Part shown: piece by piece, positions 1-59,802 of the stretch
Layout of the letters: every line of letters starts with the position of its first letter
Numbering within the stretch: the stretch's first letter is position 1
Virus record (IMG/VR): IMGVR_UViG_3300007345_000037
Span: 1-59,831 of that record
Length of the DNA stretch: 59,831 nucleotides
Direction: 5' to 3' (one strand)
Source of the DNA: a virus
Taxonomy: Duplodnaviria > Caudoviricetes
Notes under the pieces: generated by a model
Seen by the model: the letters and a program-made list of their open reading frames with translations, nothing else
What the model was told of the DNA's origin: nothing
Database searches by the model: none
Program-made: the position numbers and the translations under genes

Positions 1-42
1 GTTCCAATCGTGCAATTCTTTTTCATCATTAAACGAGTCACT

Positions 43-206
43 GAAAGAATAAAACGCTACACTACGAGCCTGTTCCCTAATTCTTTCAATACTTCATAGG
101 TGTTTTAGTAAAGGCTCCTATCTTAGTTAATACTTCTTTTCTTAAACCTCTATGAAACAAAAAAAGAATTAACACATTTGGGCGCAGTACAGCGTTTATT
201 TCTTTC
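43..206. repeat. AT-rich nested dyad-symmetry element (candidate replication origin or protein-loading site)
   Basis: Imperfect inverted repeats 43-66/183-206 (GAAAGAATAAAACGCTACACTACG vs revcomp GAAAGAAATAAACGCTGTACTGCG) and 78-108/141-171 share one centre at about 124.5. It lies directly upstream of the operon containing MCM. Origin function is inferred. Confidence 0.7.
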
Positions 207-230
207 TCGCATTCCCAAATCAACAAAAAC

Positions 231-243
231 AAAGCCCTTATAA
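231..243 (+). promoter_or_regulatory. Archaeal TATA-box promoter, probably leaderless
   Basis: CTTATAA about 29 bp upstream of ATG 266, the same spacing as at 4529, 15694 and 19042. Confidence 0.55.
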
Positions 244-265: not shown

Positions 266-673
266 ATGGGCAAGCGAAACAACAACCGATTGGCAGAAAG
301 GGTATGGTCATTCATGGTCAACCACAACGATGCCATGACCACATCAACAATCCACCAGCACTACTCAGCAGTGTATGGCAACGAGTCTATACCTAAGCAA
401 CAGACCTTGACCCAAGTCCTTCTCAACTCCCGTATGTTCCGACGGGTCGGATGGTACAACGAAGTCACCAAGGAAACCTACCCGTTCACCGGAAGCATCA
501 GTGCGCTAAAACAATGGAAGGGTGTTCCAAGCACCAACCTCGTTTGTGTCTTAGAGGCCCGTACAATGGACGAAATCACGGCACCCTACCTCGACCCCAC
601 CCGTTCCCCAATCCGACGCTTAGACCGTATGCCAAAGTTCGTTAGAGAGTATGTCAAGGAGGCTTTACAATGA
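266..673 (+). CDS. Hypothetical protein, possible winged-helix DNA-binding protein
   Basis: 135-aa ORF, first gene after the dyad element. The N-terminal helical pattern (MTTSTIHQHY...QQTLTQVLL..RMF) loosely resembles a wHTH. Confidence 0.6.
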   Translation: MGKRNNNRLAERVWSFMVNHNDAMTTSTIHQHYSAVYGNESIPKQQTLTQVLLNSRMFRRVGWYNEVTKETYPFTGSISALKQWKGVPSTNLVCVLEARTMDEITAPYLDPTRSPIRRLDRMPKFVREYVKEALQ

Positions 674-1425
674 GCGGACACATACAGTTCTTGGACATTG
701 ATGTTTTTCACAATGAATCGTTCACGATGTTCAACCCCAAGAAGGTGTACCTTTATGTCGAAGGTGAGTACGGCTTCATCCCTCTCATCTGTGGCAAGGC
801 TATCGAAGGCGACGGTACCGAAGTGGCGACAATCACTTCCCGATACCAAAACATTGAGGCATTCAACAGACTACCAAAGCCCAATGATATTGGGTGGCGC
901 ATCACACAAGTGACAGAAGATATTTGTTTTATCGCAATAACAAATTGGTACCCGAACAGTGACGGTAAAGGTGAACCCAACGCAGACCTTTGGAAGAACT
1001 CATACCCAATGATGTACAGTCTTTTGCGCTACTTGAAGATGGAGGGCTGTGAACAAATATGCACAATTACTTCGATGAACATTCTCGACGCAGAACAGAA
1101 TCCAGCCATCAATGTGCATACGAGTGACAATGATTGGGAGGGGCTGTTCTCCGACGAAGACTCATACCTCGCCCTGCCTGCGTGGGCCTTCCCAATGCTT
1201 GCCGATAAAATGGGTATGCAAGGCAAGGCCGTAGTAGCCTCGCAAGACGAAGGTCAATTCATCGACATTGAGGCTCTCAAGAAAATGACGATTTACCTAC
1301 AACTATCCGGCCTCCCGTGGTGCGATAAAGAAATGGAAAAAACAATCTCAACACTAATGTCTGTCGAAACCGAACTTTCAAGTCAAGGCTTTGACGAAGA
1401 CACATCAATGGGGGAGTTCCAATGA
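670..1425 (+). CDS. Putative PAC2-family (proteasome assembly chaperone-like) protein
   Basis: 251 aa. The spacing of GEYGFIPLICG, VATITS, LLRYLKMEGCEQICTI, ADKMGMQG and FIDIEAL resembles the PAC2/PbaA/PbaB fold. ATGA overlap with the upstream gene. Confidence 0.45.
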   Translation: MSGHIQFLDIDVFHNESFTMFNPKKVYLYVEGEYGFIPLICGKAIEGDGTEVATITSRYQNIEAFNRLPKPNDIGWRITQVTEDICFIAITNWYPNSDGKGEPNADLWKNSYPMMYSLLRYLKMEGCEQICTITSMNILDAEQNPAINVHTSDNDWEGLFSDEDSYLALPAWAFPMLADKMGMQGKAVVASQDEGQFIDIEALKKMTIYLQLSGLPWCDKEMEKTISTLMSVETELSSQGFDEDTSMGEFQ

Positions 1426-2756
1426 CGAAGATTATTGACCGAATACTAAACTTCGCAAAGGCAAACTACTATGTCGATGTTGAAGACAAAATCCCAATCT
1501 TTGTCACTTCGATTGGCGCACACATCTTCAATGGTATCAACAAGTGTAGCCGGTGTGACTTTGACCCTTTGCACAACGCAGACTTCAACATTCCTAACTG
1601 TCCCATGCGACATTCCTTCGCACCGATTTACACACCAATGTCACAACTCGCCGACACACGAGTTCACATCTTGATGCGTGGTGAGAAGGGTTCCGGTAAA
1701 AGTATGCTCATCAATATGTTCCTCGCAGAAGGTACAGGTTTGCTTTACACACCAACAGCGTTTGAAGACGGCTCCGGCTTCCGCACAATGCTCGGTCCCA
1801 ACTCCGTCACCGAGGCCGGTATGTTCGGCTCCGTCGATGAAGACGGCAACATCACAGGTCGCCCGTTGGCTCGTGATATGTGCGGAGGGTTTCTCGGTTT
1901 TGAAGAATCATCATCGCTCACTGATGCAAACAAGAAAGACCACAGCGTTGACATGAAGAATCAACTTCTCACTTCCCTTGACAATGGTCGGGTTGAGAAG
2001 GCGATGAGGATGGGTCGTGTACGATATAATACCCGCTATACTATGTGGGGCGGAACACAGCCGAGCCGACTTGAGATGGAGTCCGGTCTTGACCGCCGTC
2101 TGTTTATCATCGACATTGAGATGAGTCCCGAAAAAGAAGCGGCGTACAAGACGGCCCAGCACAAGCAGGTCAACATGACCCGTGAAGACCGAGCCATGCT
2201 CGCCGAAGAAGTCATTCACATTCGCAATTGGATTAACACACGGATGCTCGACGCAATCTTCGACCCTCCAAGTGGTGTTCACTTCTCGGAAGAGTTGGGT
2301 GCTTGGCTTGACCGACCGGACATTCGTTCCTTTGAGTCCGACTTGTTCCGACGCATCGCAATCGGCTACGCCATGATGTGTGATGATTGGGTAGGAAATC
2401 AAGTGCTGAACATAAGTCTTGACGAAAAATTACTCAAGATTCTTGAAGCCGCTCTTGTCATGCGACGCTCGGTTATGGACTCCGATGCACGACTCATCAA
2501 GGATGCGTTTTGGATGCAAGACATTACCAAGTCCACCTTGCTTAAGGAAATCGCCCGCATCATAACTCGTGGTGACTACACAGCGGCAAAGCGATGGATT
2601 GACGACAACCTCGTCAACCAACCGTGGTACTGTGAATATACCCCCAAGACTAAGGGGCGTGGTCGCAAAGGTGTCATGTGTCGAATAGGAACCTTAACAG
2701 ACCCAGCCCAAGTGGTACAGAAGTGGGGAGGTGAATCGGATGAGAAGTCAGCGTGA
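1422..2756 (+). CDS. mcm: MCM-family AAA+ replicative helicase (minimal form)
   Basis: Walker A HILMRGEKGSGKS, MCM-like SVTEAGMFGSV, Walker B GFLGFEE, LLTSLDNGRVEKA (equivalent to EAMEQQTISIAK) and arginine finger LDRR. Confidence 0.85.
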   Translation: MTKIIDRILNFAKANYYVDVEDKIPIFVTSIGAHIFNGINKCSRCDFDPLHNADFNIPNCPMRHSFAPIYTPMSQLADTRVHILMRGEKGSGKSMLINMFLAEGTGLLYTPTAFEDGSGFRTMLGPNSVTEAGMFGSVDEDGNITGRPLARDMCGGFLGFEESSSLTDANKKDHSVDMKNQLLTSLDNGRVEKAMRMGRVRYNTRYTMWGGTQPSRLEMESGLDRRLFIIDIEMSPEKEAAYKTAQHKQVNMTREDRAMLAEEVIHIRNWINTRMLDAIFDPPSGVHFSEELGAWLDRPDIRSFESDLFRRIAIGYAMMCDDWVGNQVLNISLDEKLLKILEAALVMRRSVMDSDARLIKDAFWMQDITKSTLLKEIARIITRGDYTAAKRWIDDNLVNQPWYCEYTPKTKGRGRKGVMCRIGTLTDPAQVVQKWGGESDEKSA

Positions 2757-3363
2757 GATTGAACAACGGCTTGCCAGCGAAGGCAACGCACTGAACATCG
2801 AAACCCTACGGTGGGTTCTCGACACTCCCGACTGTCCCATGTGTGGCATCTCTACCCGAAAGGAACTTGAGGTCGAAGTCCATGCTGGTCATGTGAGTCC
2901 GGCTTACCTTGAAGAGAAATACGCTTGGCCGGTTGGTACTGTCATGGAACACATGGACAACCATGTGGACTACGACCCCGAAGAAGCGAAGCACATGGAG
3001 AATATGCGCTACGAGTCCATCAACACGCTCGATGCGGCACAGGACATTGTGAGCAGGCTTCTCGGATGGCTTGACGAACTTGAGTCCATGAAGGACAGTC
3101 AAGGCGGTATCACTTCCGAGTGGGTCACTGATGCGGCAAAGTTGGTCGCACAGGCCAACACCTCGCTCCGACTCGTCGGACAACTCAAGAAAGAGATTGG
3201 TGTTGACTCGCAACTATTGTTAGCACAAAAACAAATGGATGGGGTCATGGGTGTTCTCGTGAATACGCTTCGTGATGAGCCTAAGTTGCTCGACATGATT
3301 GAACTACAAGTGGCGGCGTTGAAACCACCGTCGCACACTGTCGATGTTGATTGGGAGGACTGA
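2740..3363 (+). CDS. Zn-finger/HTH plus coiled-coil protein (possible small terminase-like DNA-binding protein)
   Basis: CPMC...HTH-like...HMDNH followed by long amphipathic helices. SD GAGGTGA precedes ATG 2740. Confidence 0.55.
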   Translation: MRSQREIEQRLASEGNALNIETLRWVLDTPDCPMCGISTRKELEVEVHAGHVSPAYLEEKYAWPVGTVMEHMDNHVDYDPEEAKHMENMRYESINTLDAAQDIVSRLLGWLDELESMKDSQGGITSEWVTDAAKLVAQANTSLRLVGQLKKEIGVDSQLLLAQKQMDGVMGVLVNTLRDEPKLLDMIELQVAALKPPSHTVDVDWED

Positions 3364-3365
3364 AC

Positions 3366-3647
3366 ATGATTGAATGGAGAAAGGGTCCGAAGAATACGCT
3401 GTTCGCTCGTCGCATTGAAAAGAGCGAGTACCCACAACTCATCAAAGCGATGATGGAGCATGGTACAATTTGTCTTCTTGAAGACAAGCCGACTTGGTAT
3501 TATGGTCCCTATATTATTCAAAGCGTTGTTGTTAGAAAGGTGTGGGGTCTAAGTCACGCACAGATGAACAACCTTAGAACTCACATTTTGGAACACGACC
3601 CGTTTGGAGGGACGAGATATGAGGGGCATAATTATCTTGACGAGTGA
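3366..3647 (+). CDS. Hypothetical protein
   Basis: ORF tightly packed in the operon, with GGAGG upstream. Confidence 0.6.
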   Translation: MIEWRKGPKNTLFARRIEKSEYPQLIKAMMEHGTICLLEDKPTWYYGPYIIQSVVVRKVWGLSHAQMNNLRTHILEHDPFGGTRYEGHNYLDE

Positions 3648-4290
3648 CGAAAGGGCGTATCGTATCGGTCAAGTTATCGAAACCCGTGGTATCGAATATG
3701 CACCGGTTGCTCCCGATACAACCTACATCATCCACGGTGTAAAGATTACCGAAAAAGAAATCAAGCGTTGGGTTGATGTTGTTTCCTATCGAATGGTTTT
3801 TGTCTTGGATAAGATGCCTAAATTGAGTAAAACAATTAAGGAACTAATAATCGTGGACAAGAGTCTTAAGGCTGGGCGTGATGGTTTCAAACGGGAAGTG
3901 GAGATGATGTTTCGCTGGGATGATAGGACGAGAGTGTTCAAGTCGATTCGTGGCGTATTACCAATCCCGCTTGCTCTCGCATTCCTCCGCCGCAATAAGA
4001 TTGAGGAAATAGAATTGTGGCGTATGTTGGCACAGACTTCGTACACGCTACCTGCCGAGTACACCGAATCGCTTTTGGCATACGGGTTGAAGTCTTCTCG
4101 TTCTCGTTGGGAGTGGCCCAAGAAGTCCAAGAAAAAGGAATCGCCGCCCGACGGGTTTCGTGAGAGTGACAAGTATTGGGAGAACATTATTGCCCTCGAT
4201 GGGAAGGTTCGCAACGACCTTCGCACTAAAGGAGAACCTCTCCCGAAGGGTGTCAAGAAAGGCAAGGAGAGTATCTTGGAATGGGTGTGA
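3619..4290 (+). CDS. Hypothetical protein, possible degenerate clamp-loader large subunit (RFC-L-like)
   Basis: The Lys-rich tail ending GVKKGKESILEWV resembles archaeal RFC-L C-termini with a PIP-like motif. No Walker A motif is seen. Confidence 0.4.
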   Translation: MRGIIILTSDERAYRIGQVIETRGIEYAPVAPDTTYIIHGVKITEKEIKRWVDVVSYRMVFVLDKMPKLSKTIKELIIVDKSLKAGRDGFKREVEMMFRWDDRTRVFKSIRGVLPIPLALAFLRRNKIEEIELWRMLAQTSYTLPAEYTESLLAYGLKSSRSRWEWPKKSKKKESPPDGFRESDKYWENIIALDGKVRNDLRTKGEPLPKGVKKGKESILEWV

Positions 4291-4514
4291 TGGACTTCCT
4301 ACTGTTTGCCGTCTTGGTCGCCTCTTTGGGTATGAATGGGTACCTCATGCTACGGTTGATTGAGCAGTGGGCCATCATCGAAAGCCGCCGAATACACACG
4401 AGTCCACGACAGCGACCGACCTTCGCCAATACGAATCCACCACACATGGATGCTCAAGAAGATGCGACGATGGCGGCGCAGGCGATGGATGCGCTGATGT
4501 GGTATGACTCATAA
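4281..4514 (+). CDS. Small membrane protein
   Basis: N-terminal hydrophobic helix FLLFAVLVASLGMNGYLML. Confidence 0.55.
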   Translation: MGVMDFLLFAVLVASLGMNGYLMLRLIEQWAIIESRRIHTSPRQRPTFANTNPPHMDAQEDATMAAQAMDALMWYDS

Positions 4515-4557
4515 CTGTTAGGGCAACATTAAATAAAACACTTCCGTGGGACAGGAC

Positions 4558-4962
4558 ATGAGCGCAACGAATCGTCGTGTACGACGGGCTATTCTCGAAA
4601 TACTTTGGGAAGGCGGACCAATGACGAAAGAAGATGTTGCCGTCGCTCTCGGTGAAAAGAAGGGAGTCAATCACATTCCTTCACCTCATTCCCTTTCCGC
4701 ACTGCTGTGCAAGTCCCATTCGGTGATTACCGTTGGCAAACGCAAGGTTGAGAATATCCTCGGCCATCGTTCATCTCACGCACTTTACGATTTGGACCGT
4801 GAAGTAGTATTATCGAAAGACGAAATCAAGTTCATCCGTGAACCTTCGACCATGACTCCATCGGAGCGCAGGCAAGCCATGAAATGTGTGGCTTGTGGTC
4901 GAACTCGCATCTTTCCTCCGAACTCCGAGGAATGTTTGCATTGTGGTCGAATATCCGTTTAG
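4558..4962 (+). CDS. wHTH plus C-terminal Zn-ribbon protein (putative transcription regulator)
   Basis: AILEILWEGGPMTKEDVAVAL wHTH-like start and CVACG...CLHCG. TATA TTAAATA lies about 29 bp upstream. Confidence 0.65.
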   Translation: MSATNRRVRRAILEILWEGGPMTKEDVAVALGEKKGVNHIPSPHSLSALLCKSHSVITVGKRKVENILGHRSSHALYDLDREVVLSKDEIKFIREPSTMTPSERRQAMKCVACGRTRIFPPNSEECLHCGRISV

Positions 4963-4986
4963 TCGGACCACCACAACCTTTATAAG
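4958..4986 (+). promoter_or_regulatory. TTTAGTCG-N13-TATA promoter
   Basis: TTTAGTCG at 4958-4965, then 13 bp, then TTTATAAG from 4979, upstream of ORF 5020. Confidence 0.7.
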
Positions 4987-5019
4987 CCCAGCCGTCTATG
5001 TATATTTAGAGGCAGGGAG

Positions 5020-5244
5020 ATGCGAGCAAAGACAGTACCACATGTTGAATACGAGATTTTGAAAGAGGTGTTAAACAACATACCTCTCGATGAAGTCGAG
5101 GCTAACATGGTGAACTGTCCGGTGACTGAAAAGCGTTTCACAACAGCGGCCAAGAATGTCGCTGTTTTGATTCGCAACCTTATGAACCGACGCCAGCATC
5201 GCCTGCCCCACACACACAATGATTACAAACAAAAGGAGGAATGA
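5020..5244 (+). CDS. Hypothetical protein
   Basis: ATG with GGGAG SD, downstream of the promoter at 4958. Confidence 0.65.
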   Translation: MRAKTVPHVEYEILKEVLNNIPLDEVEANMVNCPVTEKRFTTAAKNVAVLIRNLMNRRQHRLPHTHNDYKQKEE

Positions 5245-5711
5245 AACACATGACAGAAACACAAACAGAAACACCGCTACACGCCTTTTCCGGCCAACGC
5301 TCGGAAGCCGCTTTTATCTGCGGCGAATGCTTCACAACAATGGTCTGCGATGAAGGGGAGCATTGGTTTCACCGTTCTTGCGCCCATTCCAAACTTGGAC
5401 AATTTACTCCAATCATCAATTGGAGGAACACAAGGGATTGGCTCGATGCGGTCGTTAATCACTACGACCTCGGCGACTGTACCTTGAAAGACGAAGTGAT
5501 ACTGCTTTCCCAACTTTTGACGAACGAAATTAGAACGCATAACGGATTACAGAAAGTGCTTGATAGTCAAACTGAGCATTCGGGTTCTTCTGTTCTCACA
5601 GCACTACCGCAAAATGTATTGAGGTTCGACCGACTTTTGTTGCTCGCAGAATCGTCGCACCAAAAAATCAAGACGCTGGAAGGCGCAATCAAGTTCGGGG
5701 TGAGCCAATGA
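5241..5711 (+). CDS. Hypothetical protein with CxxC/His-Cys cluster
   Basis: GGAGG SD, CGEC...HRSC motif, overlapping stop/start codons. Confidence 0.6.
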   Translation: MKHMTETQTETPLHAFSGQRSEAAFICGECFTTMVCDEGEHWFHRSCAHSKLGQFTPIINWRNTRDWLDAVVNHYDLGDCTLKDEVILLSQLLTNEIRTHNGLQKVLDSQTEHSGSSVLTALPQNVLRFDRLLLLAESSHQKIKTLEGAIKFGVSQ

Positions 5712-6130
5712 GTGTCACACGAAGTCCATTCAAGGTCGGCGAGAAGTTGACCGTCGCCCAAATCAAGGAGTGTGCTGGTCGCACCGCTGTGCCATCCAAG
5801 ACCGGTGGTTTCATCGTCACCGCAGTTGTGCAAACAGCATACAAGTCCGGTGGGTACCTGTTCAACGCCGAGTCCGTGAGGGCTGTCAATGGTCGCAAGG
5901 TCGAAGTCGCTTGGCACCTCATACACCCACGCCGCCGAGCCAAGAACGGCAACCAAATGGTTTCAAGGAAACAATACTTCTCGGCCTTCCGTGTCATTGT
6001 ACCACAGGCAGAAGAGAAGCCTTATATGCCTCGCAGTGAAAGGGAACATGAAGCCCCCGTATCTAAGACGCAACCGGCTGGAACTCGTAAATACAAGGGT
6101 ATCGTACTCGCAGACTTTTTGGAGGAATGA
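5708..6130 (+). CDS. Hypothetical basic protein
   Basis: ATGA overlap with the upstream gene in the same operon. Confidence 0.6.
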   Translation: MSVTRSPFKVGEKLTVAQIKECAGRTAVPSKTGGFIVTAVVQTAYKSGGYLFNAESVRAVNGRKVEVAWHLIHPRRRAKNGNQMVSRKQYFSAFRVIVPQAEEKPYMPRSEREHEAPVSKTQPAGTRKYKGIVLADFLEE

Positions 6131-6278
6131 ACATGAACATAACAGTAAAAATTGACCTTGACATTGACCTTGACATTGACATTGATGAACTAATGGATAA
6201 CACCTTGCGTGACATAATTAAGAATGAGATTGAATCATGCTACATGGAAGACATTCTTGACTGCATTGAGGTGAGCGA

Positions 6279-6491
6279 ATGAGTTATTACACTATGATGG
6301 ACCTCGCTCTTTTCGTTGCTAACGATGTTTGGAAGTACGACCGTGATACTGTCGAACACATGTGTGATGAAAGTTCGTGCAAAGTAGTCATCGACTTCTT
6401 TGAAGCACACGAGGACAATTTCGCTTCCGACTGTTCCATGCAAATCAAATTCGCCGAACAATTTCAAGCACTTTTGGGGGCGGAAGAATGA
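6279..6491 (+). CDS. Small acidic hypothetical protein
   Basis: GAGGTGA SD, ATGA overlap. Confidence 0.6.
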   Translation: MSYYTMMDLALFVANDVWKYDRDTVEHMCDESSCKVVIDFFEAHEDNFASDCSMQIKFAEQFQALLGAEE

Positions 6492-6931
6492 GCGCAACAT
6501 TAAGTGATGCGTTGGGACTCGCCGCTGTTGTTGCGGCGCAGATAGGCAAGCGCATCCAATCCTCTCGACCGCTCATTGAGGAGTTGTGTGACGATTATGG
6601 CGTCGATACTGTCGTTTCATTCCTCGTGCATTGTGAACGGATTAACGGTTGGGACTGTTCCACGCAAATTGAATGGGCCAACAAAAGACGACCAAATAAC
6701 TTCTCCGCTCAAGTCACCAAAGTGCTTGAGGATTTGAAGTACCTCGGTCGCCTCGATTACAATACTTTTAAGAGTGTACTTTTCCCGCAGGCTACGGAAG
6801 ACTACCTTGACGAGAAGTGGCTTTTGTGGAACAAGGACAGGCTCGGATTCCTGTACTCGTGTTCTTCCGACAAGATACTGTTGCTTTGTGACTACATCGA
6901 AATCTGCAAGCATGGGGGGTGCGGTCAATGA
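6488..6931 (+). CDS. Hypothetical protein
   Basis: ATGA overlap, operon context. Confidence 0.6.
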   Translation: MSATLSDALGLAAVVAAQIGKRIQSSRPLIEELCDDYGVDTVVSFLVHCERINGWDCSTQIEWANKRRPNNFSAQVTKVLEDLKYLGRLDYNTFKSVLFPQATEDYLDEKWLLWNKDRLGFLYSCSSDKILLLCDYIEICKHGGCGQ

Positions 6932-7542
6932 TGCCGGAGATTCACTACAACACCTACACACAGGAAATCAAGCATCCTAAACCGTGGCAACTCGATGAAT
7001 ACGGTGAGCCGAATGTCAACGACTTTATCATCAGCGACCCTTGCTACTACATCAAGGACTCCGAATGGGGCGACTTCTGTGAGGTGTGGAACGCCGCCAC
7101 CGAAGGTCAAGGCTACGGCTCCAACATTGTCAAGTGGAAAGGCTTCGACCTCGTTATCCAATCGACGGGTGGCGACGGCTCATGGTCGTACAGCGGCTTG
7201 GAGCAGAAATTTTGGCATCGTGCTGGTACATCTCACTGTGCCGACACAGCATCCATTTGTTGCATCCCCTTTGCTCTTTGCGACACCGACCCCATGAAGA
7301 ATTACAAGGGCAACGGTATCATCGGTCACACTGACTACGGCATGGAAGACTACCCCGAAATCACTTGCGAGGGTGACTACACAGGAGTCGGTGAACCATT
7401 TGCTATTGACGGAAAAATACAGGATGGCTACACTCATTGTTGTGGTCAATATGTTGACGACGACCAATTTGAGTGGTGTGACAATGGTTCGTGCGAAGGC
7501 TGTTGGTCTTGCTTTGAATGCGACTGTGGGGATGATGAGTGA
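6919..7542 (+). CDS. Acidic Cys-rich hypothetical protein
   Basis: IISDPCY...TGGDG motif of a type seen in phage proteins of unknown function, with a Cys-rich C-terminus. True start is probably ATG 6928. Confidence 0.6.
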   Translation: MRSMMPEIHYNTYTQEIKHPKPWQLDEYGEPNVNDFIISDPCYYIKDSEWGDFCEVWNAATEGQGYGSNIVKWKGFDLVIQSTGGDGSWSYSGLEQKFWHRAGTSHCADTASICCIPFALCDTDPMKNYKGNGIIGHTDYGMEDYPEITCEGDYTGVGEPFAIDGKIQDGYTHCCGQYVDDDQFEWCDNGSCEGCWSCFECDCGDDE

Positions 7543-7678
7543 TGGCTGGAAAGGTAGTCAAGTTCTTTTTCAAGAGCGTACTGTCCTCTAAGGGACTCAT
7601 GCTTTGTCCGCTATGCGACGACGCTGTTATCGCAAAAGACGGTGAGCGAGCCTGCTACCACTGCACACTCGACGCATC

Positions 7679-7903
7679 TTGGGAAGTGGAAGTATGACCC
7701 GCTACAAGATTCTTGGACGCTGGACCGCTTGCTATCACTGCGGTAGGACTTATGAGTCGGGCCTACTTGGTCGTACAAAATGTCCTCACTGTGTCAAGTG
7801 TAAAACGCCCAACAAGTGCTTCCCTCAATTTGAGGCTAAACATCACTGCAAATTGTGCGCCGCACAGAAAGTGATTTACGATTTAACGGGGGAAGAAGAA
7901 TGA
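7679..7903 (+). CDS. Small Zn-finger protein
   Basis: CYHCG, CPHC and CKLC motifs. Confidence 0.6.
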   Translation: MGSGSMTRYKILGRWTACYHCGRTYESGLLGRTKCPHCVKCKTPNKCFPQFEAKHHCKLCAAQKVIYDLTGEEE

Positions 7904-8091
7904 TTGACACAGACAAATACGAAGGAAGCGAAGGCCGATACTTCACAGGTAAGATGGTTGATAACTACATGAACCTACAAGCAGAAGTCCAGCGGTTGCG
8001 TGAAGGTATCAAAGAGTTATCCGAAGATTGGCTACGATGGGATGAAAGAGGAATAAAGATGGCTAAAACACTAATGGAGTTGATTGAATGA
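7855..8091 (+). CDS. Small coiled-coil hypothetical protein
   Basis: Probable start ATG 7900 (MIDTDKY), ATGA overlap with the RFC gene. Confidence 0.5.
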   Translation: MRRTESDLRFNGGRRMIDTDKYEGSEGRYFTGKMVDNYMNLQAEVQRLREGIKELSEDWLRWDERGIKMAKTLMELIE

Positions 8092-8990
8092 CCGTTTGGG
8101 CTACTCACCACCGACCAACAAGTCTTACGGGAATAGTAGGACAAGACCAACTCGTCGCTGAACTACATCAAGTGGTTGTCGGGGAAATGCCGATGCAACA
8201 CTACATCTTCTTCTCGCCAATGGCCGGTACAGGAAAGACCTCAATGGCTATCGCTCTCGCAAAGGACTTAGGTTGGCAAATCGTGACCTTCAACGCATCT
8301 TCCAAGAGAGAGCGTGGGATTGAGTTCATTGAAGAAGTCATTATACCAATGACCCGAAGTGGTGTTAAGGAAAGAATCTTTTTGCTTGACGAGGCCGACC
8401 AACTGACCGATGCCGCACAGTCTGCTCTCAAAGGCGTTATTGAAAACGCTAACGGTTATTTCATTCTCACCTGCAACCGTCTTCCGAAGGTTTCACGCTG
8501 GCTACAAAGCCGATGCCAAGTGCGTACTTTTAGCCCAATACCAAATGAGGATATGGTTCAACAATTGACTAAAATTGCTGTTCAACACGCTCCCGATATT
8601 TCCAAGACTGCTGTCGAAGTTATCGCAAAAGGTCACGAAGGTGACTTGCGAAATGCGATTGGAGCATTACAGACCTACTGTGGTATGACAGGCAGAAACG
8701 CCGAAGCATTCCTTGACAGCCTCACTGCGCCCCACATCGACTTCTCTAAAATGTTGATAGTATGTTTTCGGGAAAAGAATCTTGAAACAGCAGTCAAGAT
8801 GTTGAAGGGTGATGTTCGGTACCAAATACGAGCGTGTTTCCAATACGCTGTCGAATCACCGGCAAAAGCACAGTCCAAGATGAAAGTCATTGAAGCGGCA
8901 ATCACTGCCGAGCGTGACATAATCAACGGTGTGGATGAAGAGGTAGTGCGCTACAACTTCGTTCGTATGTTGGTCGGAGGGAGCCAATAA
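8088..8990 (+). CDS. rfcS: Replication factor C small subunit (clamp loader)
   Basis: WATHHRP (equivalent to WVEKYRP), Walker A GTGKTS, NASSKRERGI, Walker B LLDEAD, SRC motif and GDLR. Confidence 0.93.
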   Translation: MTVWATHHRPTSLTGIVGQDQLVAELHQVVVGEMPMQHYIFFSPMAGTGKTSMAIALAKDLGWQIVTFNASSKRERGIEFIEEVIIPMTRSGVKERIFLLDEADQLTDAAQSALKGVIENANGYFILTCNRLPKVSRWLQSRCQVRTFSPIPNEDMVQQLTKIAVQHAPDISKTAVEVIAKGHEGDLRNAIGALQTYCGMTGRNAEAFLDSLTAPHIDFSKMLIVCFREKNLETAVKMLKGDVRYQIRACFQYAVESPAKAQSKMKVIEAAITAERDIINGVDEEVVRYNFVRMLVGGSQ

Positions 8991-8991
8991 C

Positions 8992-9002
8992 AACCTTTAT
9001 AT
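8992..9002 (+). promoter_or_regulatory. Archaeal promoter AACCTTTATAT
   Basis: The same AACCTTTATA motif, or a near match, recurs near 4975, 11887, 15690, 16051 and 19038, each upstream of a gene start. Confidence 0.7.
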
Positions 9003-9039
9003 CCCCACAACATGACGACAAAATACAGGAGAAATCTAC

Positions 9040-10266
9040 ATGGTAGCATACGAACAAATGATTGAAAAAGTGGCAACGCAAGTCGGAACTGACCCCAAGA
9101 CGCTATCGGCGAAAGCCGATGCAATCCTCGCCCAAGAAGGCGCAGGTTGGGAAGCATCCGGTAAGAACGAAGAACAACGCAAGACTCTTGCCCTACGAGT
9201 AGCGGCACGACAATTGGTGGCTGAAAAGGCAAAATTGACCCGCAGTGGCGCAACGATGTACGAAGGTATGTTCGTCAATGTCCCTCGTGAAAAGGATTGG
9301 GCTAAGATGGCCTACAACAAGATGAGCAAGACTCTCAAGTCGATGCCGGACATGGCACAACGCCTCGCTCTTGTTGGTCAAGGTGCGCTCATCATCTATG
9401 AGAACAACCACGACGGAACCTACACCCGTCACGCCAACCCTTCCTTGCTGAACCAGCAAGACTTCACCGAAGGTACTCGCTCGGATGAAATCAAAGAGAT
9501 TCCACCACGACATATTGCTCTTGATGCGAACACCTCGTTCTCACTCATTTGGGACAAAGCGACAACTCACTTCGCAAACGGCAAGCCGAACTTCAAGTAC
9601 GGCTCCGCTCGCCCACTTGAAGAACCCGACCGCTCGTGTCTGTTCTTGGGTCGCAAGGCTGGCTCCAACGACAGTCCGAGCCTACACTCCTTCCGGTACA
9701 ACGGCAACTTGGCAAAGCAATCTTGGCCTACCTTCGTCACCGGCACCATCGGTATGAAACCTGCCAACCGTGAAGGTATGGCATACGGTACAAAGGTCAC
9801 CGCCTTCACCACTGATGCTGAACTCTCATCCATCTTTACCGCACCACCTCTCATGGTTGACGAAAACGGTGCAAGTGGACTTATCGCTGATTGGCTCGGT
9901 GAAACGCTCATGCCTTCTCTCGACAAGTGTCACGAACACTACGGAACTCTTGACGACAAGGCAAAGTGGGACACCACCTACGCTACTGTTGTCGAAGTGG
10001 TTCACATCGACCCTCGTGAAAACGGTGGATTCATCGTGACCGTGGCTGATGCCGATATTATGTCGGAAACCCCACCAATCGAAGTCTATGTCGGTGCCTC
10101 CGAGGAAACCTCGGTTGACTTCGGCGTTGGTTCGGAACTCGTTGTTGTTGGCTCCCCGTGGGTCACTCGTGACGGCGAGGCTCGCTTTATGACCTCCGGC
10201 TGGTGGTGCATGAACCGCATCGCACCTCTCGCTGACACTGACGATGGCGAAGACGGCTGGGATTGA
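9040..10266 (+). CDS. Putative single-stranded DNA-binding protein (RPA-like, OB folds)
   Basis: Beta-rich C-terminal OB-like segment (VVEVVHID...VGSELVVVG), acidic tail DTDDGEDGWD and position inside the replication cluster. Confidence 0.55.
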   Translation: MVAYEQMIEKVATQVGTDPKTLSAKADAILAQEGAGWEASGKNEEQRKTLALRVAARQLVAEKAKLTRSGATMYEGMFVNVPREKDWAKMAYNKMSKTLKSMPDMAQRLALVGQGALIIYENNHDGTYTRHANPSLLNQQDFTEGTRSDEIKEIPPRHIALDANTSFSLIWDKATTHFANGKPNFKYGSARPLEEPDRSCLFLGRKAGSNDSPSLHSFRYNGNLAKQSWPTFVTGTIGMKPANREGMAYGTKVTAFTTDAELSSIFTAPPLMVDENGASGLIADWLGETLMPSLDKCHEHYGTLDDKAKWDTTYATVVEVVHIDPRENGGFIVTVADADIMSETPPIEVYVGASEETSVDFGVGSELVVVGSPWVTRDGEARFMTSGWWCMNRIAPLADTDDGEDGWD

Positions 10267-19020: not shown

Positions 19021-19021
19021 C

Positions 19022-19049
19022 TTTAGTCGCCCATAACAACCTTTATATG
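19022..19049 (+). promoter_or_regulatory. TTTAGTCG-N12-TATA promoter
   Basis: TTTAGTCG at 19022-19029, TTTATATG from 19042, ATG at 19071. Confidence 0.65.
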
Positions 19050-19070
19050 CCTGCCCGTGTATGTATATAC

Positions 19071-36503: not shown

Positions 36504-36658
36504 ATCAACCCCTGCACATCAACACCGAGCGATGCAACCATCGCAAAAAAAGCATACTTCAAGTATTTTGCCATAACGGACAACTCAAACACTGCTTGTT
36601 CAAGCAGTTGTACTCGCTGGTCCAAAGACTCGACTTGTTGTTCAAGATTTTTGCTCAT
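36500..36658 (-). CDS. Small coiled-coil plus transmembrane protein (holin-like candidate)
   Basis: Translated by hand: MSKNLEQQVESLDQRVQLLEQAVFELSVMAKYLKYAFFAMVASLGVDVQGLM. Confidence 0.55.
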   Translation of the reverse strand: MSKNLEQQVESLDQRVQLLEQAVFELSVMAKYLKYAFFAMVASLGVDVQGLM

Positions 36659-36947
36659 CCTCAATCACCTGCTTTGCTTCTTCAAGACGGGAAATGAGGT
36701 CTGCCTTTGTTCCGTCAACGGCAAGTCCGTTTTCGTTAGCAAGTTCAATTAACTCCGCCTTTTTCATTTTCTTAATCGAAGATAGGGAAGGTAATTTTGA
36801 GGCAATATCTTTTAGGTCGTCAGCCAAGTCAATTACTTCATCAAGTGTAATCTTGCCATCGGCCATCAATTTTTTGTATGTTTTGTAGCCAGCAAGCCCA
36901 AGACCCACTGCAATTGCGGCAAGTAGTATAATCATTTCAATATCCAT
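36642..36947 (-). CDS. Membrane-anchored SAP/HeH-domain protein
   Basis: N-terminal TM IILLAAIAVGLGLAGY and SAP-like MKKAELIELANENGLAVDGTKADLISRL. Confidence 0.7.
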   Translation of the reverse strand: MDIEMIILLAAIAVGLGLAGYKTYKKLMADGKITLDEVIDLADDLKDIASKLPSLSSIKKMKKAELIELANENGLAVDGTKADLISRLEEAKQVIEDEQKS

Positions 36948-36948
36948 T

Positions 36949-37122
36949 TTATTCACCTTTGTTGTATAGAACTTCTTTTACGGCTGATAGCGGAATAACG
37001 GTAAAGTGCCTACTTTCGCCCACCCGATAAATCTTGTAGCCGTGGGGTGTTTCTTCAATGTTCACATTCGTGTAGCACCTTTCGGGAGGATGATACACTA
37101 TTTTTCCTTTTCTTTTTGTCAT
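36949..37122 (-). CDS. Small hypothetical protein (57 aa)
   Basis: Translated by hand (MTKRKGKIVYHPPERCY...). It fills the gap in the operon. Confidence 0.5.
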   Translation of the reverse strand: MTKRKGKIVYHPPERCYTNVNIEETPHGYKIYRVGESRHFTVIPLSAVKEVLYNKGE

Positions 37123-46701: not shown

Positions 46702-46774
46702 GTTAGGGGGAGATGTGGGATGATTTATGAAGGTAGCGATTTATTTTTGTTTATTGTTTCTTTTTTTACAAAAA

Positions 46775-46935
46775 TAATTAAATCGAACGACATATATCGG
46801 TTTTGCTTAATTCTTTTATTGTTTCAAAGGCGTTTAAGAAAAAGAAGTAATAAGCAATATCAGTGGGGCATAAAACATCTATGAATAAATGAAAGAATAC
46901 TATGTTTGGTCTTTGAGTACATCGTTTTATTCTTT
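46775..46935. repeat. Second copy of the AT-rich dyad element
   Basis: TTAATTCTTTTATTGTTTCAAAGGCGTTTAAGAAAAAGAAGTA (from 46807) closely matches the revcomp of 130-172. The flanking modules and ~81-bp inner spacing are also conserved. Confidence 0.7.
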
Positions 46936-46995
46936 TTGTTGGTGCTAAATCAACAGAAAGATAAATGTTCATAAAGGGTTTCCTCTTGGAGTATA

Positions 46996-48438: not shown

Positions 48439-48584
48439 CAAACCCACAAATCAAAAAATTAAGAGAATGTCAAAAGTGTGGTCATAAATGTTATTCCCGT
48501 TATACTTCTCACAAAAAGTGGTGTAAGGAAACAAAAAAAATGGTGTACTGCGGTTGCTTAAGGGTGGTAAGAGATGAAGCGTGA
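48435..48584 (+). CDS. Micro Zn-finger protein (paralog of 15532-15666)
   Basis: Translated by hand: MTNPQIKKLRECQKCGHKCYSRYTSHKKWCKETKKMVYCGCLRVVRDEA. Confidence 0.5.
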   Translation: MTNPQIKKLRECQKCGHKCYSRYTSHKKWCKETKKMVYCGCLRVVRDEA

Positions 48585-51867: not shown

Positions 51868-52242
51868 TTGGTTTCCCTCCTGTATTCCCACCGGAGTTCT
51901 CCCTCCTATATGAGCATTTGACGACTAATCCATGAAATTCGGCTGTTTTGGGGGTTTTTGGTTTGCTCCGGCTCGGCCTGCCACCGGCCCGACAATGTGC
52001 CTAAACGGGCTGGAATCGCACTTTTCATTCATGTTTTGGTTCATGTTTTGGGTTTGGGTCAACTAAACGATGCACTGCGAGGCGGTGGCCCCTGTTTCGC
52101 CAGCCTGTTTCGACCCGAACATGAATCATTCTTGTTCACTTTTCGGCTCGGAAGTGGTCCGACGGCGCACCGGAGCCGAGGCGGACAATGTTGGAATTTG
52201 AGCCAATTTCGCACTTTGAACCCGGATATGAGCGTTCGGCGT

Positions 52243-52370
52243 TTTAGGGTGCCCTAAATCTCCGATTTGCCGAAATGCACATGAAGCGTTCATGTTTTAG
52301 GGCCGCCTAAACATTTTTAGGGCGACCTAAATTTTTTTAGGGCAACCTAAATCATTTAGTCGCGACTAAA
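52243..52370. repeat. Tandem 16-bp palindromes TTTAG-N6-CTAAA
   Basis: Copies at 52243, 52296, 52316, 52336 and 52355; the last four are spaced 19-20 bp apart. Confidence 0.9.
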
Positions 52371-52820
52371 TCCGAAAACGCAAATCAAAATTTAGTCGGT
52401 ATCCAGGACATTAAAATAGAAAATTTAGTCGAAAATTATCGAAAATAAAAATAGACCAAATTTAGTCGGTATCGAATTAGTCGAAAAGAGGATTTTTAAT
52501 TAGTCGGCATCGAAATTTTAGTCGAGGGGTGGCCCCCGCCTGCAACACACGCAGACGAGGACCGGAGGGGTGAGCGTGAAGGGTGGTCCCAGCCCGTAGG
52601 CTGGGAATCGCCACCCGTGGGGTGCTGGTCACAGCAGTGCTTGGCAGTGCGGGCAGACAGGTGTACGAGGTGCGCCGGTGTTGGCAAGGGTGGTGTATCG
52701 ACCTTGCTTTTCGGACCACACGCCCGCTTCACGGGCAAGGTCGGAAGGCGACCAAGCGGAGTGCTTGGCACCACACAGGGCGAGAGGTTGACCGGAGAGG
52801 CGAATGTGAAGGATAGCCAT

Positions 52821-53153
52821 TCAAGCCACCGCCGGAATTTCGTGCATCACAATGTCGCTGTTTGGGCACATGATGATGAGGCGGTCGAGGGTTGCGTCGA
52901 TGAGGTAGCGAGGGACATAGGTCGGGACGGCGATGTCGGGTGTGGCGGTGTAGGAGGCGGCGGCGAGGGAGTAGCCATGCGAACCGAGCAGGGTTTCGAT
53001 GGTGTCGCTGAATTGGTTGAGTAGGTCGTCAACATTCGGCGAGTTGTAGTCAAAGCAGACCTCATGGTACATCTGTACCACGGTGTCGAGAACCGCAGGG
53101 TTCACGGGGTAGGTCGGCAGTCGGGCTTCGGGGGTTATGGTTTGTTGTGCCAT
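52821..53153 (-). CDS. Hypothetical protein embedded in the repeat tract
   Basis: 110-aa ORF with GC3-rich codons, TATA-like CTTTAAG upstream on the - strand. Confidence 0.65.
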   Translation of the reverse strand: MAQQTITPEARLPTYPVNPAVLDTVVQMYHEVCFDYNSPNVDDLLNQFSDTIETLLGSHGYSLAAASYTATPDIAVPTYVPRYLIDATLDRLIIMCPNSDIVMHEIPAVA

Positions 53154-53487
53154 GTTTGTACCATAGTCACTCTCCCCTTAAAGGCATCGGTGATAGGCGG
53201 TTTTAGTCGGCAAAGTCGGCCACAGGTGGCCCCTACTTGGGGGCCGCAGGCCCAATAATCGACTAAACGGGGGAGTAATAATTTATCTTTAGTCGCGACT
53301 AATTCAAGTGCTTTGTTATTTTTTAGTCGTTATCGGAACGATTTTTTTATTTAGTCGAAATTTAAAAAACGATAAAATTTAGTCGAAAATCAAAGACAAT
53401 AAAATTTAGTCGAAATCAAAAATTATCGAAATTTTAGTCGGCCAAAATCATGTTTAGTCGCTAAGAAAGAAAAGTATATAAGGGGTA

Positions 53488-53518
53488 GCCCAGCCCCCCG
53501 CCGAAGCGGGGTTCGGGC
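53488..53518. other. Strong GC hairpin
   Basis: CCCCGC-CGAA-GCGGGG core with extendable flanks. It could be the terminator for 53763-53560 or part of a small RNA. Confidence 0.55.
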
Positions 53519-53559
53519 GGCTCCGGCTCGTGGCCGTATTTAGTCGGTGAGTTAGTCGC

Positions 53560-53763
53560 TCAAACAATCATTGTCCACTTGAACACGATGAAATTGTTTT
53601 CCTTCCTGTTTGTGAACACGCAGACAGTGAAGGTTTCAAATGACTCTTCAAGGTCTTCATCGTACACGGTTTCCAACTTGCCGCCGGGATAATACATTGG
53701 CAGGTCGTTCCATTGTTCTTCGTTCTCGTGTGTTAGTGCAGTGTTTATTATCATGTAGTCCAT
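53560..53763 (-). CDS. Small acidic hypothetical protein with its own promoter
   Basis: GGAGG SD and a TTTAGTCG-N13-CTTAAATA promoter on the - strand. Confidence 0.7.
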   Translation of the reverse strand: MDYMIINTALTHENEEQWNDLPMYYPGGKLETVYDEDLEESFETFTVCVFTNRKENNFIVFKWTMIV

Positions 53764-53796
53764 GTTTTTGCCTCCATCTGTTGCTCGCCTCGCTAC

Positions 53797-53825
53797 TATT
53801 TAAGTTTATGGGAGGGGCGACTAAA
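53797..53825 (-). promoter_or_regulatory. TTTAGTCG-N13-TATA promoter
   Basis: The - strand reads GTTTAGTCGCCCCTCCCATAAACTTAAATAGTAG. Confidence 0.75.
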
Positions 53826-54018
53826 CGCCGATTTTATCATTATACCTTAGTCGTGACTAACTCGCAGGGGATTTGGGGAATTAAGGAACCCATCTAGTCG
53901 GGACTAATTAGTCGCGACTAATTTATTACTCCCCCATCGGCGCATTCGGGAAGCGGCACCCCACTCCTATGAGTATGTGGGGGTATATAACCTTTGCTTT
54001 GAGGCGAATTTTTAGTCG

Positions 54019-54458
54019 CGACTAATTTTATGGGGCGCAGTTGTTTGTTTAGTCGTTATTTGGCTTCGTCGGCTTCGAGTAGGGGGTAGTGGCGACCCTG
54101 TTCACTTTAACCGACTAAACGCTGTACTGCGGACTGATACTTTAGTCGAAATTTAAAAATTAGTCGCGACTAAAAAAATGGGGTGCAGTGATGCGTTTAG
54201 TCGAAATTTAGCATCGGGATGCCTCGGCCTCTATCCCGAAGGGTACCACATTGAAATACCGACTAAACAGTGTACTGCGAGGCAGAAATTTAGTCGGGAC
54301 TAAACAGTGCTACGGGGTGCGTTTAGTTGCGACTAGAAAAATGCCTTTCAGTGGTGCGTTTAGTCGAATTAAACCGCCATAAGACTCCACCGCCCTACTC
54401 AGCCATCGAAATTCTAAAGCACGACTAAACGGTGTACTGCGTGATAGAAAATTAGTCG
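54019..54458. repeat. Three ~130-bp cassettes of inverted 37-bp modules flanking 55-56-bp spacers
   Basis: Module pairs 54019-54055/54112-54148, 54167-54203/54260-54296 and 54330-54366/54422-54458. Confidence 0.85.
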
Positions 54459-54885
54459 CTACTAAAGGCATCACTGCGTTTTGGGGGGCGACTAAAGATT
54501 ATTGACTACAAAAAAACGAATAACGACTAACGAGCCAAGTCAAATCCCGGATATTGACCACCGATAATTTAGTCGAAAGTGCAAAAGTTCAAAAATGCGA
54601 TGAAATTTTAGTCGTTATCGAAATCCTGAAAAACCGTTATTGTAGTCAATAATTTAGTCACGACTAAGTATCAGGGGCACCGCCCGCTCCGCCGGTTTCT
54701 GTGGGGTTTATTTAGTCGAAATTATTTCCGGCAAAAATTGAACGACAATTTAGTCGAAAAAAATAACAGCCGAAAAATCAGCAAATCCGACCGTAGCAGT
54801 TAGTCGAAAATCGAAAAAACCAGCCGATTTAGTCGCCCGTCCCAATCCGGCCCTCTTTAATAATACACTACGCACAAGATAAGCG

Positions 54886-54919
54886 TTTAGTCGGGGTACC
54901 GGAAACTTTAAATAGTAGT
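54886..54919 (+). promoter_or_regulatory. TTTAGTCG-N13-TATA promoter
   Basis: GTTTAGTCGGGGTACCGGAAACTTTAAATAGTAG upstream of ATG 54959. Confidence 0.8.
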
Positions 54920-54958
54920 ACATCTATGGGTATATAAGACCCGAAGGAGATACCCCAA

Positions 54959-57175: not shown

Positions 57176-57697
57176 ATGAGTTATCGGGAAACCCAAATCA
57201 AGAAGTCCAACAACGAAGACAACCCGAACCAAAACAAATGCGCCCAAGCGGTCGCAAAATGGTTGGGCGTTGCCGACAAGGTGCGGTACCTGCACAACAT
57301 GGAAGACCTCGTGCGGGCCTCACGCAAGAGATTTACAGTCCGCAGTCGCTTGAGCGAAGCCAAAAAGTTATTACCGAAAAAGAAACTCACCGTTTCACAA
57401 TTCCGAAAAATCGCACAGGACATATCCGACAAGGCGTATGGTGGCGAAGTCCGCAAGGCTGAATACTATTGTCCCGATAGTGAAAAGTGGTGGATTCAAG
57501 AAACCCGCACCTGCTACGACCCTGCGGCGTTCATCATTCGCACCCCCGACCACGCCCTCGGCCTTGACAGTACAGGCAAGGTCATGGTTGACACATCTCC
57601 CCGAAAGTCCGACAGGCGAACCGTCACGCATGTGTACATGGTTTGCTGGGGCGAGCCGACGAAGACCGAACTCTTTGGAGGTTTTGTCGAAGAATGA
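57176..57697 (+). CDS. Possible papain/C39-like Cys-His-Asp fold protein
   Basis: NKCAQAVAKWLG...FIIRTPDHALGL...VMVDT. Confidence 0.45.
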   Translation: MSYRETQIKKSNNEDNPNQNKCAQAVAKWLGVADKVRYLHNMEDLVRASRKRFTVRSRLSEAKKLLPKKKLTVSQFRKIAQDISDKAYGGEVRKAEYYCPDSEKWWIQETRTCYDPAAFIIRTPDHALGLDSTGKVMVDTSPRKSDRRTVTHVYMVCWGEPTKTELFGGFVEE

Positions 57698-57708
57698 GGG
57701 TAGTAGTG

Positions 57709-59787: not shown

Positions 59788-59802
59788 AGTGGTGTGTGTG
59801 TG

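Follow-up and report, generated by a model that had tools for sequence, protein, structure and literature searches.

The stretch of DNA analysed here (the window) is a complete IMG/VR record of 59,831 bp (IMGVR_UViG_3300007345_000037) from a tailed virus, classed as linear and with a CheckV completeness of 91%. Close to its left end, ahead of a gene for a helicase-like ATPase, it carries a palindromic element (the dyad) of ~200-220 bp with eight to ten conserved boxes, which recurs once more in the same genome. We tentatively interpret this element as a replication origin combined with a promoter control region of the main operons, while granting that this may well prove otherwise.

The copy at the left end (copy 1) is built of two pairs of inverted repeats sharing a centre at 124.5, as stated in a preliminary description of this DNA: an outer pair at 43-66/183-206 (24 nt, 79% complementary) and an inner pair at 78-113/136-171 (36 nt, 75%). 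The palindrome reaches further than was claimed there, to ~13-232, because a further (fifth) box (AAATCAAC.GAAAC) lies outside each arm. The two 37-bp modules of that description (47-83 and 166-202) are real units of the form AAAGAAT-N29-ATTCTTT, the spacing of which is fixed in relatives: on the left side AAAGAAT and ATTCTTT are placed at -49 and -13 relative to TTCATAG, and their mirror boxes on the right side at +13 and +49 to +51 relative to CTATGAA. This spacing was found in 16 of the 19 copies measured by script, the exceptions being L003, in which a wrong site was paired by the script, and the relatives G004 and G005, which have variant inner boxes and gave no pair. The single-stranded DNA of positions 40-210 folds at -24.9 kcal/mol, compared with -11.35 +/- 2.66 kcal/mol for shuffled sequences (z -5.09; 0 of 200 shuffles equal). 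The following features were distinguished in copy 1 (GC, guanine plus cytosine content):

2..52, plus strand: 3' end of the upstream, co-directional gene (16 codons and TAA), cut by the record end and recognized by a peptide match to locus L004
13..31, no strand assigned: left copy of box E (AATTnTTTT..GATT-like), within the upstream coding sequence, mirroring 214-232 and aligned by eye with TTAATTGTTTTGATT of other copies
43..66, no strand assigned: outer left arm, an inverted repeat with AAAGAAT at 44-50 and a degenerate core ACTACG at 60-65 (matrix match at 51(-), 14.3 bits)
47..83, minus strand: left 37-bp module GAAT...ATTC, 23/37 identical to the reverse complement of 166-202, with fixed spacing
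93..100, no strand assigned: inner left box TTCATAGG, with TTCATAG invariant in 12-13 of 13 aligned sequences
101..149, no strand assigned: AT-rich (GC 0.30), polar centre with a T-rich tract TACTTCTTTTCTTA at ~131-144
150..156, no strand assigned: inner right box CTATGAA (CCTATGAA), within the 21-mer CTATGAAACAAWAAAAGAATT
166..202, plus strand: right 37-bp module, with AAAGAAT at 163-169, core CGCAGT at 183-188, a 16-mer at 183-198 and the outer box ATTTCTTT (matrix match, 25.4 bits)
214..243, plus strand: box E (AAATCAACAAAAAC, 217-230) and a TATA-like box TTATAA (238-243), identified by eye and conserved in relatives

The outer left arm overlaps a stop codon, since positions 2-52 are the 3' end of the upstream gene: an open reading frame (ORF) of L004 (1782-2621, 279 aa) ends with ...FQSCNSFSSLNESLKE*, and the same peptide is encoded by window positions 2-52. 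All five whole relatives likewise have a co-directional gene, of 174-283 aa, whose end falls at the left arm of copy 1. In the alignment of 13 sequences, used for both box invariance and RNA folding (see below), AAAGAAT of the outer left arm is invariant in all 13.

A profile search placed the element upstream of the helicase-like gene, in the same orientation, at 19 of 20 loci, so that the position given in the preliminary description holds in relatives; the 20th locus starts inside the helicase-like gene and has no upstream DNA. Four of the 19 loci (L017, L018, L019 and L021), whose helicase is ~60% identical, lay outside the profile set and nevertheless matched at E values of 1e-12 to 1e-24. 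The dyad forms a conserved trio with a winged-helix gene and an AAA+ gene at 19 of 20 loci, G004 and G005 included. The exact 21-mer CTATGAAACAAWAAAAGAATT was found in 40 IMG/VR stretches (33 distinct contexts), every one of which bears the full dyad (40/40), and 16 times in 596 Gb of cellular genomes, in no case (0/16) with the rest of the dyad. The cellular occurrences are chance matches and therefore no host copy was found; judged from these searches, the element appears to be virus-specific.

The second copy of the dyad (copy 2) lies in the late part of the window:

~46772..46935, minus strand: arms and boxes of copy 2, with box E and TATA-like boxes on both sides, between the divergent genes for the portal (ATG 46701, minus strand) and an Mre11-like protein (46996, plus strand)

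Copy 2 (boxes at 46810, 46879, 46892 and 46929) matches copy 1 at 77% over positions 80-172 and scores 74.8 bits on the minus and 56.3 bits on the plus strand with the profile. All six whole records have two copies each, at the same two syntenic places; the second copies of G001-G003 were detected by the profile, and those of G004 and G005, which are diverged, by a partial blastn match and reading by eye. In all six records the copies bracket a block of ~45-48 kb with converging replication and morphogenesis operons, and the three largest transcription blocks (replication, morphogenesis and Mre11/terminase) all begin at them. Judged by the best-scoring strand, 3 of 4 genomes carry their two copies in opposite orientation; for the remaining one, G002, the scores are ambiguous and the polarity of the centres indicates inversion. 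In G004 and G005 the inner boxes have changed to GCTTATA../..CTATAA, on both arms and in both copies of each genome, as expected if a virus-encoded reader changed along with the boxes. Concerted evolution of the centres was considered and not supported, within-genome identity (0.57-0.74) being no higher than that between orthologous copies (0.57-0.78).

The centre of the element is AT-rich (GC 0.29-0.37 in 17 copies) and polar, with a T-rich tract (TACTTCTTTTCTTA-like) beside one inner box in all copies. The centre-to-centre distance of the inner boxes is either 56-59 or 66-68 bp, two classes that differ by about one helical turn. Duplex stability was estimated from nearest-neighbour energies, by which non-overlapping 200-bp segments were ranked within each record. 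The dyads hold ranks 1 and 5 among the least stable segments of the window (copy 2 being rank 1), 1 and 2 in G002, 2 and 3 in G001, 1 and 6 in G003, 2 in G004 and 7 in G005. The 100-bp segment centred at 127 is the third least stable of the record, and in the window, G001 and G003 the other segments of low stability fall in AT-rich stretches of heptamer arrays, which are described below. RNAalifold returned a covariation term of +0.54 (a positive value penalizes) and paired boxes only with boxes, with 1 of 15 predicted pairs doubly changed; the element has no Rfam match at the gathering score, and no transfer RNA (tRNA) was found in it by ARAGORN. Because only the boxes are kept, and without covariation, the selected feature is a sequence read on duplex DNA and not a hairpin.

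The right module of copy 1 is related to an array of TTAGTCG heptamers near the other end of the window, as had been proposed:

54019..54458, no strand assigned: six CGACTAA-N23-TTAGTCG modules of 37 bp in alternating orientation, with the core CGCAGT-N4-CGTTTA in common with the dyad
52064..52081, minus strand: lone core site CTCGCAGTGCATCGTTTA at the left edge of the array region, the second-best matrix match (22.1 bits)

The six modules start at 54019, 54112, 54167, 54260, 54330 and 54422; unrelated, GC-richer spacers of 55-56 bp separate the members of each plus/minus pair, and successive pairs are 18 bp apart. The array region as a whole (51.9-54.9 kb, 3 kb) holds 47 of the 53 TTAGTCG/CGACTAA sites of the window. 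The 16-mer CGCAGTACAGCGTTTA occurs exactly at 183-198(+) and 54116-54131(-), and when up to three mismatches are allowed it has 6 matches against 0.45 expected, a number reached by none of 100 shuffles. The gapless alignment of module 166-202 with 54019-54055, on which the preliminary description had relied, is less telling: its 20/37 identities are unremarkable by themselves, being equalled or exceeded by 30 of ~119,600 37-mers, although array modules are still the best matches window-wide. The two best non-self matches of 166-202 are in-register array modules (54112(-), 24/37, and 54167(+), 23/37), and the next modules are those at 54422 (21/37), 54260 (20/37) and 54019 (20/37). The common core was supported by a matrix made from the right arms of 11 relatives, with the window excluded, which ranks the right arm of the window first (25.4 bits) and six sites of the array region next (52064, 54426, 54182, 54034, 54116 and 54264), followed by the left arm; 8 sites reach at least 14 bits, compared with a simulated mean of 0.87 and maximum of 4. 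The core common to the dyad and the large TTAGTCG arrays suggests a shared regulatory grammar across the non-coding DNA of these viruses.

The distance of 54 kb formerly given between the dyad and the array is an artefact. The record is a fragment of its genome: bases 1-2795 of its closest relative, G006, match window positions 57375-59831, the dyad of G006 lies near 9140, and ~6.3 kb (G006 2796-9139) are absent between the right and left ends of the window. As the right end of the record runs via this absent segment into the left end, the real map puts the array ~11 kb upstream of the dyad.

An array of the same design is present in G001 (60.4-63.4 kb) and, with ATAGTCG in place of TTAGTCG, in G003 (46.4-48.3 kb); in both, CGCAGT lies ~10 nt from the heptamer, and the lone core site has a counterpart in G001 (60590), again at the array's left edge. 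The heptamers of array and dyad are alike (TTAGTCG vs TTATTCT). The pattern GTTTAGTCG proved too strict, with 1 match in five relatives, TTAGTCG itself being abundant in G001. The dyad is not an iteron family, its boxes being inverted and of at least three kinds; its CGCAGT cores are direct in some lineages, yet there are two per copy, and the TTAGTCG array comes closer to such a family. At 4959, 19023, 54887, 57710 and 59804 an isolated TTAGTCG precedes a TATA-like box by ~14 nt, and because of this siting at five places the heptamer is considered promoter-associated. The pattern suggests a putative TTAGTCG-reading transcription factor with a regulon separate from the dyad promoters.

Several smaller features were noted in and around the array. 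Small minus-strand genes are interspersed in the region 51900-54900, and four tandem palindromes TTTTAGGGC..CCTAAA lie at 52297-52355, with the first TTAGTCG cluster immediately to their right; a similar sequence, GCCCTAAA, adjoins the lone core site of G001 (60590). On the minus strand at 51915-51960, ORF50686 has ATTAGTCG ahead of TCATATAGG. A weaker core-like site, ACCGCAGTACACCATTTT (48537-48552, minus strand, 13.4 bits), is intergenic, just upstream of the terminase gene, and may be a chance match. The isolated heptamers belong to a promoter class with (G)TTTAGTCG placed ~14 nt upstream of TTTATA/TTTAAATA, ahead of small plus-strand genes:

4957-4990, 19021-19055, 54885-54920, 57708-57745 and 59802-59831, plus strand: members of this promoter class

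The preliminary description had inferred an 'origin-like loading platform' at copy 1, and we likewise infer a cis-acting platform, present twice per genome, that would be read by proteins as double-stranded DNA. Each copy comprises two 37-bp modules and two inner boxes around a polar, AT-rich and easily melted centre of 50-60 bp, a layout that may be likened to an SV40 (simian virus 40) or papillomavirus control region. The proposed mechanism involves the products of two neighbouring genes:

266..673, plus strand: winged-helix protein of 135 aa (ORF266), the first gene after the element and candidate binder (AlphaFold2 (AF2) model, mean predicted local distance difference test (pLDDT) score 90)
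1422..2756, plus strand: P-loop/AAA+-like ATPase of 444 aa (ORF1422), the 'MCM' of the preliminary description (sub-threshold match to Sigma54_activat)

Virus-encoded, sequence-specific proteins would fill the symmetric boxes, the winged-helix protein of the first downstream gene being the best candidate binder; the centre would then open, and the neighbouring AAA+ ATPase would be loaded in both directions. The same bound proteins may set the activity of the TATA promoters located ~40 nt (or ~50 nt) outside the arms. We lean towards an origin plus promoter control over transcription control alone because full symmetry is kept at copy 1, one arm of which has nothing to regulate, because duplex stability in these genomes is lowest at the centres, and because the dyad, the winged-helix gene and the ATPase gene stay together. 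In the window as in all five whole relatives, the left arm of copy 1 looks onto the 3' end of the co-directional gene, and inspection by eye of the window and relatives revealed no TATA-like box at the mirrored place. A left-arm or antisense promoter at copy 1 was considered and rejected for lack of such a box. The boxes of this arm are as conserved as those of the right arm (invariant in 12-13 of 13 sequences).

Readings as an origin and as a promoter control region both fit most of the facts, and a number of observations weigh against the former. Three of the four arms in the window adjoin box E, a TATA-like box and then, ~25-27 nt on, a start codon. On the right side of copy 1, TTATAA (238-243) lies ~25 nt before the ATG at 266; at copy 2, the TATA-like boxes of the portal side (~46722-46733, start 46701) and the Mre11 side (~46967-46977, start 46996) both lie 26-27 nt from the start. 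By their position, and given archaeal promoter geometry, these boxes would be promoters of near-leaderless transcripts. The distance from arm to TATA-like box is ~40 nt for copy 1 of the window, G001 and relatives as well as for the Mre11 side of copy 2, and ~48-53 nt for the portal side of copy 2 and G005, and such a fixed arrangement of arm, TATA-like box and start is explained equally well by pure promoter control. Weak duplexes are also a property of AT-rich promoter regions; within the array, AT-rich stretches match the dyads in instability (ranks 1-4 in the window), and the array, with its 47 heptamer sites, is itself a competing origin candidate. Copy 2 of the window and many other second copies have largely lost the CGCAGT core, which, being degenerate there, cannot define the element; the orientation of the left core moreover flips by lineage (inverted in the window and G002; direct in G001, G003, G004 and G005). 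No recognizable initiator gene was found in the ORF scans described below, the ATPase could be placed neither as MCM nor in helicase superfamily 3, and the winged-helix fold predicted for ORF266 is generic and would be silent on the choice between origin and operator. GC skew, calculated in 2-kb windows and in 3-kb bins of the six records rotated to copy 1, tracks the coding strand without switching at copy 1, and is uninformative.

In the main rival account, a serious possibility although not the one we favour, transcription alone is controlled. The boxes would then serve as operators or upstream activator sites, bound by at least one virus-encoded regulator (possibly an autoregulated winged-helix protein) that switches on the three large operons together; the symmetry would reflect a higher-order or looped complex, and no replication would start at the element. 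The order of elements beyond each gene-facing arm (box E, TATA-like box, start codon, at a conserved distance) fits this account, as do the location of the copies where the three largest transcription blocks begin, the clear promoter association of the related heptamer TTAGTCG, the winged-helix protein encoded by the first downstream gene (a common layout of autoregulators) and the two-class spacing, which keeps helical phase and also fits cooperative regulators. The boxes do stand at a fixed position to a TATA/BRE (B recognition element) promoter, yet the left arm of copy 1, equally conserved, serves no promoter in the window or in any of the five whole relatives. The element also extends ~200 bp upstream of the TATA box, a reach that exceeds the needs of known archaeal operators, and a weak-duplex centre is unneeded for a regulator site.

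A site of recombination, resolution or packaging, at which cruciform extrusion or cutting by a nuclease (ERCC4, PD-(D/E)XK, Mre11-like or terminase) would lead to concatemer resolution, recombination-dependent replication or the start of headful packaging, seems improbable to us. Such a function is suggested by the possibility of a long hairpin or cruciform (z -5.1), the encoded ERCC4, PD-(D/E)XK, Mre11-like and RecA-like proteins, the distance of 1.8 kb between copy 2 and the terminase gene, and the mutual inversion of the two copies by best-scoring strand in 3 of 4 genomes; however, the stretches between boxes are non-complementary and lack compensatory changes, so that it is the sequence and not the hairpin that is selected, and a pac site is normally single, whereas there are two copies here. 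Still less credible, and in our opinion very improbable, is the absence of any control function, the element being instead a structured non-coding RNA gene or a mobile element, similar to a miniature inverted-repeat transposable element (MITE), that landed twice. Its terminal inverted repeats, AT-richness and size (~165-220 bp) do resemble a MITE, and its fold energy is strong. Against this stand the exactly two syntenic copies in six whole records, the retention of the element in loci with a helicase only ~60% identical, the lack of a target duplication in the window (by eye) and, for an RNA, the lack of covariation, of an Rfam family and of a tRNA. The mobile-element version is already refuted by the strict synteny.

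A more specific version of the origin-plus-promoter reading, which we regard as speculative and rather unlikely, assumes a start of replication free of Orc1/Cdc6, in which the winged-helix protein would read a modular 37-bp 'address' and recruit the AAA+ ATPase to two origins. The address would be combinatorial, one factor recognizing the core CGCAGT-N4-CGTTT and a second one the interchangeable heptamer ends, with AGAATAA-type ends marking the dyads and CGACTAA-type ends the 3-kb array and accessory promoters. If this were true, origin firing and the TTAGTCG regulon would be wired together. In either version the element is a precise candidate site of ~200 bp for replication or master regulation, and since the boxes and a candidate binder are defined, the question is testable in vitro, although virus and host are both uncultured.

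The architecture of the element resembles that of several known systems. In archaea (Sulfolobus, Pyrococcus and haloarchaea), origins in which origin recognition boxes (ORB) flank a duplex unwinding element (DUE) are located next to orc1/cdc6. The likeness to this ORB-DUE-ORB type is one of architecture: an AT-rich stretch that melts easily lies between inverted elements of ~30-40 bp, replication genes follow immediately downstream, and a replicon can have more than one copy. In contrast to these origins, an adjacent orc1/cdc6 gene was not found here, the neighbours being the winged-helix protein and the AAA+-like ATPase, each arm is a 37-bp unit bounded by an inverted heptamer, and the arms adjoin promoters. 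The control regions of SV40/polyomavirus and papillomaviruses have an origin core between divergent promoters. They share with the element palindromic short initiator-type sites with an asymmetric AT- or T-rich tract, and in both cases a bound initiator could regulate transcription; copy 2 is likewise located between divergent transcription units. A cluster of sites and an AT-rich tract near a helicase-like gene is also the plan of viral initiator-helicase origins of the SV40, papillomavirus and SaPI (staphylococcal pathogenicity island) type. The helicases of SV40 and papillomaviruses, however, bear an origin-binding domain, whereas none is recognizable in the ATPase described here, and the element is four to five times longer and occurs twice per genome.

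Bacillus phage SPP1 has two far-apart copies of one origin module (oriL and oriR), with direct-repeat boxes read by gp38. The virus described here similarly has two box-plus-AT-rich modules separated by tens of kb, the first close to the replication genes and the second in the late region; its boxes are arranged in dyad symmetry, unlike the direct repeats of SPP1. In phage lambda, two related multi-site operator sets (OL and OR) control divergent promoters. The likeness to them lies in two related multi-box sets at operon heads with an adjacent gene for a small DNA-binding protein, but OL and OR span ~80 bp and overlap promoters, whereas the boxes of the element are located 40-200 bp upstream and surround a centre of weak duplex, and one of the arms lacks a promoter.

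Every relative examined has a homologue of ORF266 as its first gene downstream of copy 1. In G004 and G005 this gene directly precedes the ATPase gene, the 251-aa gene (ORF670) being absent, and the distance from dyad to ATPase gene is ~0.45-0.75 kb there, compared with 1.2 kb in the window. The best structural match of the ORF266 model is 2od5 (VIA-align; Z 8.9, root-mean-square deviation 3.7 over 79 residues), other winged-helix domains giving Z 6-7.4, and Foldseek found no match in PDB at E <= 0.001. The entry 2od5 is a structural-genomics 'putative nucleic acid binding protein' of an uncultured marine organism, possibly a related protein that belongs to the same virus-host world.

The preliminary description placed the element upstream of an 'MCM operon'; its position before a helicase-like gene stands, whereas the MCM identity was not supported by any test. 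The sole Pfam match of ORF1422 is to Sigma54_activat, with an E value of 0.0027 that is below the cut-off, and sequence searches of PDB with the single sequence or a 12-sequence profile gave nothing relevant. Its AF2 model is poor (pLDDT 55), and an Atlas lead to PF00910 came from 10% of the members of one cluster, at rank 9. The 120 homologues listed form a tight family (60-95% identical), none with a Pfam domain or a name. By eye, the protein has what we take to be Walker A, Walker B and LDRR motifs. No match to PHROGs or NCBIfam was obtained for ORF266, ORF670, ORF1422 or ORF50686. The earlier statement that no Orc1/Cdc6 is recognizable was upheld, with 0 matches among the 58 ORFs of the window and 5 ORFs of the missing segment (Pfam; NCBIfam on 11 ORFs).

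Genes of the window identified with Pfam encode a family B polymerase, an RFC-like ATPase, a chaperonin and a RecA-like ATPase; further genes encode PD-(D/E)XK and ERCC4 nucleases, a DNA methylase, portal, terminase, ArdA, tail tube and tape-measure-like proteins, and the Mre11-like exonuclease. This gene set fits an archaeal tailed virus of the magrovirus kind. The closest relatives of the polymerase among GenBank phage records are haloarchaeal tailed viruses (23% identity), and in the same records neither the DNA of positions 1-2800 nor the ATPase protein was matched. As this search gave no named magrovirus relative, the label 'magrovirus' rests on gene content. According to one survey, magrovirus-type viruses are among the most abundant surface-ocean viruses and have a nearly complete archaeal-type replication apparatus, the MCM of which was detected solely via profile-profile searches (PMC5434244). 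The main texts of the magrovirus papers searched, this survey included, hold nothing on the present element and mention neither promoters nor inverted repeats; in the accessible text of the survey (PMC5434244) 'origin' refers to evolutionary provenance in the eight uses shown, and 'repeat' is unmentioned. Replication origin, intergenic and iteron are likewise unmentioned in the main texts of later magrovirus surveys, and the accessible part of the BJ1 halovirus paper (PMC2194725) has no content on cis-acting origins.

The window is broken 42 bp left of the dyad, and several other IMG/VR contigs (L055, L058, L059 and L080) also end near a dyad; these ends may be assembly breaks at a repeated element. 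Among the sequencing runs listed, the sequence is present in 20 DNA runs and in no RNA run. The missing ~6.3 kb, as seen in G006, carry small genes including a pyrimidine-dimer glycosylase-like ORF. Two further genes of the window were noted:

36642-36956, minus strand: small SAP-domain protein (a DNA-binding motif), inside the morphogenesis block
58204-58737, plus strand: ArdA anti-restriction protein, in the accessory block

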